Made by a program: the position numbers and the translations under genes
Notes under the pieces: model-generated
Seen by the model: only the letters and a program-made list of their open reading frames with translations
What the model was told of the DNA's origin: nothing
The model's database searches: none
Shown here: positions 6,445 to 7,061 of the stretch, one piece after another
Position numbering within the stretch: position 1 is the stretch's first letter
Layout of the letters: each line of letters begins with the position of its first letter
Origin: Escherichia coli
GTDB lineage: Bacteria; Pseudomonadota; Gammaproteobacteria; Enterobacterales; Enterobacteriaceae
Strand: one strand, 5' to 3'
DNA length: 64,000 bases
NCBI RefSeq assembly: GCF_016903815.1
Contig: NZ_CP069973.1

Positions 6445-6657
6445 ATGTCTAATAAAATGACTGGTTTAGTAAAATGGTTTAACGCAGATAAAGGTTTTGG
6501 CTTTATCACTCCTGATGATGGCAGCAAAGACGTTTTCGTCCATTTCACCGCCATTCAGAGCAATGAATTCCGCACGCTGAACGAAAATCAGAAAGTTGAA
6601 TTTTCTATTGAGCAGGGGCAACGTGGTCCCGCGGCAGCGAACGTTGTTACGCTCTAA
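6445..6657 (+). CDS. cspG: Cold shock protein CspG
   Basis: 70-aa CSD protein [21 protein letters not shown]; long AT-rich leader upstream. Confidence 0.95.
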
Positions 6658-6830
6658 GGTTGCCGTTATTACTCAACATCTCCATTTCCGCTGTCCATGT
6701 TGTCATGGTTCACAGTACCGCACATCGGCATTCGATGTGACGGAGCGAAATCCTTTAGGAGCAAAGTGTATTTTTTGTAAATCGACGATGATCACCTTTG
6801 ATAACGTCGCGCTGCAAATACGCACTGACC

Positions 6831-7061
6831 ATGCGCCGCTGGATTTCACAAAATAATATCAGGCTCCCTTGTGGAGCCTTTTTTATATCTGCCTTATTTT
6901 TCTTCAACGCTGTATGTATAGTAAGCGATAACCTGTTGATTATTGAATCTTTCGGGGAGATGGCTTATAACATTTCTTACCTGACCAGGGTACCGGGAAC
7001 CAACACCTTACTGGCGTGTTGCTGTCTTTTAAGACCAGAAGAGGTTAACAGTGAATATTGA
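6831..7061 (+). CDS. ymcE: Small hydrophobic protein YmcE (Sfa)
   Basis: 76-aa ORF from ATG 6831 (MRRWISQNNIRLPCGAFFISALFFF...) matching recalled YmcE length and start; ORF runs through a terminator-like hairpin. Confidence 0.6.
   Translation: MRRWISQNNIRLPCGAFFISALFFFNAVCIVSDNLLIIESFGEMAYNISYLTRVPGTNTLLACCCLLRPEEVNSEY
6861..6885 (+). terminator. Intrinsic terminator-like hairpin plus T-run
   Basis: aggctcc-cttgt-ggagcct followed by TTTTTT. Confidence 0.65.

Follow-up and report, generated by a model that had tools for sequence, protein, structure and literature searches.

Immediately downstream of cspG, two overlapping reading frames and a hairpin occupy the same stretch of DNA, and the question is which of the frames encodes a protein and what the hairpin does. 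The window, i.e., the whole 64,000-nt stretch of Escherichia coli DNA analysed here, contains a Cys-rich frame that overlaps the 3' end of cspG and stops just before the hairpin, and the annotated ymcE ORF is read through that hairpin in another frame. The initial annotation presented an alternative: either an unannotated small metal-binding protein shares the transcript of cspG, or the hairpin attenuates expression of ymcE/gnsA. This either/or turned out to be false, as a small protein belonging with cspG and a hairpin before gnsA are both found at the locus. The region corresponds to the E. coli gene order cspH / cspG / ymcE / gnsA / yccM, and its features are as follows.

6289–6444, plus strand: cspG 5' UTR, cold-shock thermoregulator leader (Rfam RF01766 cspA thermoregulator)
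6445–6657, plus strand: cspG CDS, 70 aa (ORF list; RefSeq annotation; codon-position variation)
6655–6659, plus strand: Shine-Dalgarno-like TAAGG with the cspG stop TAA inside, 8 nt 5' of the ymcF start
6668–6856, plus strand: ymcF CDS, 62 codons, ATT start and TAA stop (RefSeq WP_071524879.1; PF23641; pN/pS)
6692–6703, plus strand: first predicted zinc knuckle, C9-P-C11-C12 (65-sequence alignment)
6767–6778, plus strand: second predicted zinc knuckle, C34-I-F-C37 (65-sequence alignment; AlphaFold core)
6831–7061, plus strand: annotated ymcE ORF, 76 aa (RefSeq; PF15939), with weak coding support
6861–6885, plus strand: intrinsic terminator of the cspG-ymcF transcript, as indicated by terminator scan, fold and conservation of position
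7051–7224, plus strand: gnsA CDS, GTG start, 3' of the terminator (ORF list; PF08178; codon-position variation)

Identity and conservation of the Cys-rich frame

The frame is open for 86 codons from TTG 6596 to 6856, with GTG 6623 in frame and the stop TAA at 6854–6856, and it encodes the peptide ...HFRCPCCHGSQYRTS...GAKCIFCKS..., in which CPCC and CIFC are spaced by 25 residues, exactly as first described. The product is, however, not unannotated. In a megablast search of 5,426 complete E. coli genomes, the annotation "ymcF: cold shock small protein YmcF" lies under this stretch; in RefSeq NZ_CP023820, the ymcF CDS (WP_071524879.1) corresponds to positions 6668–6856 of the window (offset +4899); and the counterpart in K-12 MG1655 is b4723, "protein YmcF". 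The window copy occupies the same position and uses the same ATT start as the K-12 gene, from which it differs at the nucleotide level only. Furthermore, the match of YmcF to Pfam PF23641 "YmcF-like" scores 168.5 bits (cutoff 27), with residues 1–62 of the protein aligning to positions 1–62 of the 62-position model. Since the protein is annotated in RefSeq and K-12 and has a Pfam family of its own, the supposedly unannotated protein is a known one; the Cys-rich frame is, with high confidence, the gene ymcF, real and conserved. In the literature collection searched by gene name, no primary paper describes ymcF or its cold-shock label, and the Weaver 2019 preprint covers YnfU only. YnfU (NCBIfam NF047912, the ECs_2282 putative zinc-binding family) was considered as a relative of YmcF and rejected: the family model scores 17.4 bits, where 37 is the cutoff, and hhalign of YnfU with the YmcF profile yields a probability of 3.8%.

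A protein search returned 137 clusters homologous to YmcF, from Salmonella, Citrobacter, Klebsiella, Enterobacter, Kosakonia, Yokenella, Leclercia, and others. An exhaustive profile search over 1.84 billion representatives returned 42 family members, a number that marks the family as small, and PF23641 is a small, mainly enterobacterial family. In K-12, ynfQ (b4724), located after cspI in the Qin prophage, encodes a YmcF paralogue of 62 aa with approximately 66–70% identity. The name is ambiguous in the literature, as the YnfQ listed in Table 1 of VanOrsdel et al. 2018 (PMC6001520) is an unrelated 37-aa ORF between ydfJ and ydfK. Two assemblies outside the enterobacteria call for caution. The contig CACSKA010000011.1, labelled Chryseobacterium sp. 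18061, carries an enterobacterial csp-ymcF locus near-identical to that of Citrobacter sp. 18056 from the same project, which suggests that the Chryseobacterium assembly is probably mislabelled or contaminated. A 663-bp contig labelled Aeromonas hydrophila, whose YmcF shares 98% identity with that of E. coli, is likewise suspect.

To compare coding properties, 80 genomic ymcF loci were fetched from different species, and the ungapped first 47 codons of 79 species entered the codon analysis. The entropies at codon positions 1, 2, and 3 are 0.43, 0.24, and 1.21, respectively. The pN/pS ratio is 0.16 in the ymcF frame, with synonymous sites near saturation; for the two remaining forward frames it is 1.5 and 1.9. 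None of the 79 species has a stop in the ymcF frame, whereas stops interrupt one of the remaining frames in 77 species and the other in 79. Among the Escherichia lineages, the variable sites fall 3/2/20 by codon position. These comparative patterns indicate that YmcF is under strong purifying selection. The codon-substitution comparison suggested in the initial annotation, in which support for ymcE alone was to count against the Cys-rich frame, was thus run on both frames and came out the other way, supporting the Cys-rich frame and not ymcE.

The cysteines of YmcF follow the pattern CPxC-x21-CxxC, with two knuckles, CPxC (residues 9–12) and CxxC (residues 34–37), conserved across the family. 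In an alignment of 65 sequences (A2), C9, C12, Q16, N28, G31, A32, I35, F36, C37, K38, and M41 are invariant and C34 is conserved in at least 90%. C11 and H13, both contained in the CPCCH of the window protein, vary, and divergent members carry CPAC, CPKC, CPTC, CPRC, CPHC, or CPSC at the first knuckle. All the conserved residues of the PF23641 core, HFRCPxC..SQYR.S..D....NP.GA.CIFCK, are present in the window protein. From an input of 14 sequences, AlphaFold gave a poor model (pLDDT 55.7), and the model from the 65-sequence alignment, in which the core residues 11–40 reach a pLDDT of approximately 90, was used instead. Most likely, a single zinc ion is bound by the four conserved cysteines within a small fold of the zinc-ribbon type, in agreement with the zinc-ribbon-like Cys4 motif originally recognized. 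Zinc ribbons of this type usually bind nucleic acid or a partner protein, and YmcF may do likewise. A PDB sequence search and Foldseek searches of the PDB and of viral structures with YmcF gave no significant match. The gene itself is already provided with a b-number, a product name in RefSeq, and a family in Pfam; a cold-shock phenotype or a binding partner of the protein would be new biology.

Start codon and probable coupling to cspG

The possible starts first named for the Cys-rich frame, TTG 6596 and GTG 6623, both lie inside cspG. Interspecies comparison instead places the start of ymcF at ATT 6668, 10 nt past the cspG stop. At the position homologous to this ATT, 41 loci have ATT, 3 have ATC, and 33 have ATG, and in many species (L008, L019, L024, L025, L027, L030, and others) an in-frame stop lies only 9–27 nt 5' of the start, which excludes starts inside cspG. 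A longer protein of 77–86 aa, translated from TTG 6596 or GTG 6623 in the frame overlapping cspG, would agree with a window in which the frame is open from 6596; most Escherichia and several Citrobacter likewise keep the frame open over the 87 nt 5' of the ATT. Such a product is nevertheless extremely improbable, in view of the close upstream stops, the bona fide ATG with a strong Shine-Dalgarno (SD) sequence at the homologous codon in 33 species, and the length of the protein, fixed at 62 aa in 73 of the 79 loci; besides, the stretch 5' of the ATT encodes the conserved C-terminus of CspG in another frame. The comparative data hence fix the non-canonical ATT start and, in addition, tie it to the adjacency of a csp gene.

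In the copies situated directly behind a csp gene, ATT or ATC outnumbers ATG by 39 to 1 (n = 40), and all 40 copies carry T(AA/GA)GG, which includes the stop codon of the csp gene and begins 12–13 nt 5' of the ymcF start. In the stand-alone copies, ATG prevails by 31 to 4, mostly behind a strong SD of the AGGAG type. The association between start-codon identity and csp adjacency has a Fisher p of 1.3e-15, not corrected for phylogeny. The RNA around the junction (6640–6700) is essentially unstructured, with a minimum free energy of −2.9 kcal/mol and with 196 of 200 shuffled sequences folding at least as well. The locus thus has the geometry of a coupled gene pair, namely a 10-nt gap and an SD lying over the upstream stop codon, and this geometry together with the weak AUU leads us to infer translational coupling between cspG and ymcF. 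Ribosomes terminating on cspG probably re-initiate at the AUU, aided by the UAAGG over the cspG stop, to judge from the arrangement of these signals. Such re-initiation would make YmcF cold-induced along with CspG, at a fixed lower ratio.

Several stand-alone copies that start with ATG (L028, L029, L031, L035, L036, L038, L045, L047, and L079, from Klebsiella, Raoultella, and others) contain a sequence resembling the end of a csp gene, cctgcggtagtgaatgttgt..., approximately 40 nt upstream. Such remnants suggest that an upstream csp gene decayed and that the start then switched to ATG. The neighbourhood of the stand-alone Enterobacter ymcF, with a large membrane-protein ORF on one side and a 474-aa ORF on the other, gave no functional clue.

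The terminator and the ymcE frame

The hairpin at 6861–6879 (AGGCUCC-CUUGU-GGAGCCU) consists of a 7-bp stem with 5 GC pairs and a 5-nt loop, followed by UUUUUU; the segment 6861–6885 folds with −12 kcal/mol and a z-score of −3.15 relative to shuffled sequences. The description of a strong hairpin with a T-run right after the Cys-rich stop is fully borne out by these values. A terminator-like hairpin is found 3' of ymcF in 47 of the 79 loci, and in most of the csp-linked loci it lies 0–10 nt from the ymcF stop. Hairpins at this distance occur in Escherichia, Citrobacter, Salmonella, Kosakonia, Siccibacter, and Raoultella. The stems are unrelated in sequence between genera. Conservation of the position and not of the stem sequence argues that the function is conserved, as expected for a terminator of the csp-ymcF unit, and by structure and position the element at 6861–6885 is judged a genuine terminator, situated inside the annotated ymcE. 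On the minus strand, 6861–6879 obtains a terminator-like score as well (tail GATATTATTT), but the T tract is poor there; this score probably stems from the symmetry of the palindrome, no convergent gene ending there.

At the other end of the transcription unit, the Rfam cspA thermoregulator (RF01766) matches 6289–6711 with 161 bits (gathering threshold 78). The cspG 5' UTR has been established by experiment as an RNA thermometer (PMC13271884), and ymcF moves together with cspG in published transcriptomes (PMC11728337). The two genes would accordingly form one cold-shock transcript, running from the cspG promoter and the thermometer leader and usually ending at 6861–6885, and the leader would confer cold-dependent expression on the whole transcript, ymcF included.

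The ymcE ORF starts at ATG 6831, 26 nt before the ymcF stop, and is read in another frame through the hairpin, as recorded at the outset. YmcE matches Pfam PF15939 with 184 bits and NCBIfam PRK09891 with 185.5 bits, both models being built from Escherichia sequences only. Its homologues come from Escherichia/Shigella only; they form 28 clusters that vary erratically in length (43–130 aa), some of them fused to neighbours. A tblastn search of the 80 loci detected outside Escherichia only a partial C-terminal match in two Citrobacter. Of the eight Escherichia lineages, three have AGG and one has ATA in place of the start codon ATG 6831. In one E. coli lineage, −2/−1 indels are accompanied by in-frame stops; in a second, the loss of 6 nt creates a TGA. 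A 1-nt deletion common to E. whittamii and strain E1V33 alters the C-terminus of YmcE. Frameshifts or stops thus occur in four of the eight lineages, and the start or the frame is lost in six of the eight overall. The two halves of the segment belonging to ymcE only have variable sites distributed 10/6/8 and 4/3/4 by codon position, with no third-position excess, whereas the comparison genes in the same lineages give 3/3/19 (cspG) and 7/1/20 (gnsA). On comparative grounds, the N-terminal part of ymcE, where the ORF overlaps ymcF and the terminator, probably does not represent conserved coding sequence.

There is virtually no chance that ymcE is the real gene and the Cys-rich frame a chance ORF. 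Such a reading could appeal to the annotation of ymcE in nearly all E. coli genomes, to its Pfam and NCBIfam models, and to the naming of ymcE-gnsA as a toxin–antitoxin pair in the literature (PMC8484670); but it is contradicted by the purifying selection on the ymcF frame across genera, by the lack of codon periodicity and the lost starts and frames of ymcE, and by its absence outside Escherichia even where gnsA is present; Citrobacter has gnsA with no full-length ymcE. A different proposal, that YmcE is a genuine but very young Escherichia-specific protein (e.g., a partner of GnsA) translated from ATG 6831 or ATG 6960 on read-through transcripts, is possible, if somewhat doubtful. The ORF is intact and 98.5–100% identical in the sampled E. 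coli, all eight Escherichia lineages retain the internal ATG 6960, and the ymcE probe signal rises at 15 °C (PMC2948877). Moreover, the paralogous ynfR (21 aa; K-12 L084 1189–1254, minus strand; phage Tritos L083 2192–2257), which starts 2 nt past the ynfQ stop, crosses the paralogous hairpin without interruption, its register being that of the "RLPCGAFF" segment of YmcE, and tagged YnfR is reported to be induced by cold shock (PMC6001520). Against a young protein stand the missing excess of third-position changes, the erratic gene models, and a reading frame that, past ~7000, differs between lineages while the nucleotides are nearly invariant. This last combination speaks for constraint at the DNA or RNA level rather than on a protein.

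The segment 7003–7060, just 5' of the gnsA GTG, is near-invariant from E. albertii to E. coli, beyond the synonymous sites of gnsA itself. Over 6925–7075, RNA stability is not significant (z −1.17), and no Rfam match was found. As the antitoxin of a type II pair with GnsA, YmcE has its family-model match, but neither conservation of coding nor co-inheritance with the toxin was found. An ORF that lacks a coding signature bears directly on the reported YmcE-GnsA pair and casts doubt on the antitoxin annotation; if ymcE is part of the gnsA leader, the assignment as a toxin–antitoxin system needs revision.

Possible read-through into gnsA and comparison with known systems

GnsA, encoded 3' of the terminator, matches Pfam PF08178 with 122 bits. 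In the paralogous prophage unit, the induction factors are 6.5 for cspI, 5.9 for ynfQ, and 5.8 for ynfN, which lies after the terminator, and the three genes agree in their SspA dependence (PMC11228462); the nearly equal induction of ynfN implies some read-through in that unit. At 15 °C, cspG is up 5.0-fold and ymcE 2.3-fold (PMC2948877). Part of the transcription at the window locus may similarly pass the terminator into the gnsA region. A crude promoter scan found no promoter-like site between the terminator and gnsA, and a literature search on cold induction of gnsA returned nothing informative.

Proteins of the CspA family act as transcription antiterminators, and overexpression of gnsA or gnsB raises the content of unsaturated fatty acids. 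Both properties would fit a hairpin that is a regulated attenuator, at which Csp-mediated antitermination or reduced termination in the cold admits transcription to gnsA and links the adjustment of membrane lipids to cold shock. The order csp, ymcF, terminator, (small ORF), gns, found alike on the chromosome, in the Qin prophage, and in lambdoid phages, also argues for this role, as do the almost uniform induction across the prophage unit, the two values at 15 °C, and the promoter scan. However, most genera that keep the terminator have no gnsA 3' of ymcF, and so crude a scan leaves room for an internal gnsA promoter; regulated attenuation is therefore conceivable but on the unlikely side. A still broader picture, which we put forward as speculation and consider rather improbable as a whole, is that csp-ymcF-terminator-gns constitutes a conserved mobile cold-response cassette, combining an AUU/SD re-initiation device that couples the output of YmcF to Csp translation, an attenuator relieved by cold or Csp proteins that meters the lipid regulator gnsA or gnsB, and a ymcE that belongs to the gnsA leader instead of being a conserved protein-coding gene.

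The closest counterparts of the locus are located on mobile elements. The lambdoid phages Tritos, mEp460, 2H10, and HannyBb carry cspI, a ymcF-like gene with an ATT start, ynfR, ynfN, and gnsB directly behind the lysis cassette; in Tritos (OV696610, L083), the cassette spans 1778–2837, and there are further matches (H56–H62). The chromosomal cspG-ymcF-(ymcE)-gnsA cluster thus has a mobile counterpart. Like ymcF, ynfQ and the phage copies start with ATT 10 nt past the csp stop and are followed by a terminator, a small ORF, and a gns gene. The sequence overlapping the csp stop is TGAGG in these copies and TAAGG in ymcF. Unlike ymcF, they occupy a prophage or phage site by the lysis cassette, with ynfR and ynfN in place of ymcE and with the toxin-like gnsB in place of gnsA.

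A second counterpart is the Salmonella sRNA candidate STnc220 (Rfam RF02077). In two Salmonella loci (L023, 2647–2725; L012, 2647–2726), the model matches with approximately 102 bits, exactly over the final ~40 nt of the ymcF homologue and the terminator that follows, and the corresponding window segment 6814–6894 scores 34.6 bits, below the gathering threshold. The position of the match identifies the candidate as a 3' fragment of the csp-ymcF mRNA, i.e., the 3' end of the ymcF transcript, ending at a terminator homologous to the hairpin of the window.

In the case of the protein, the N-terminal zinc-binding domains of TFIIE-alpha and TFIIB, both Cys4 zinc ribbons, give weak structural scores against YmcF with no detectable sequence relationship. 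In contrast to these domains, YmcF is a stand-alone bacterial protein of 62 residues. In the case of the start codon, the known parallel is infC, the gene of IF3, which also begins with AUU. AUU is a rare and inefficient start codon against which IF3 discriminates, and in infC it serves autoregulation by the gene's own product. In ymcF, by contrast, the AUU goes together with a position directly behind the stop codon of a csp gene, which suggests a role in re-initiation coupling.
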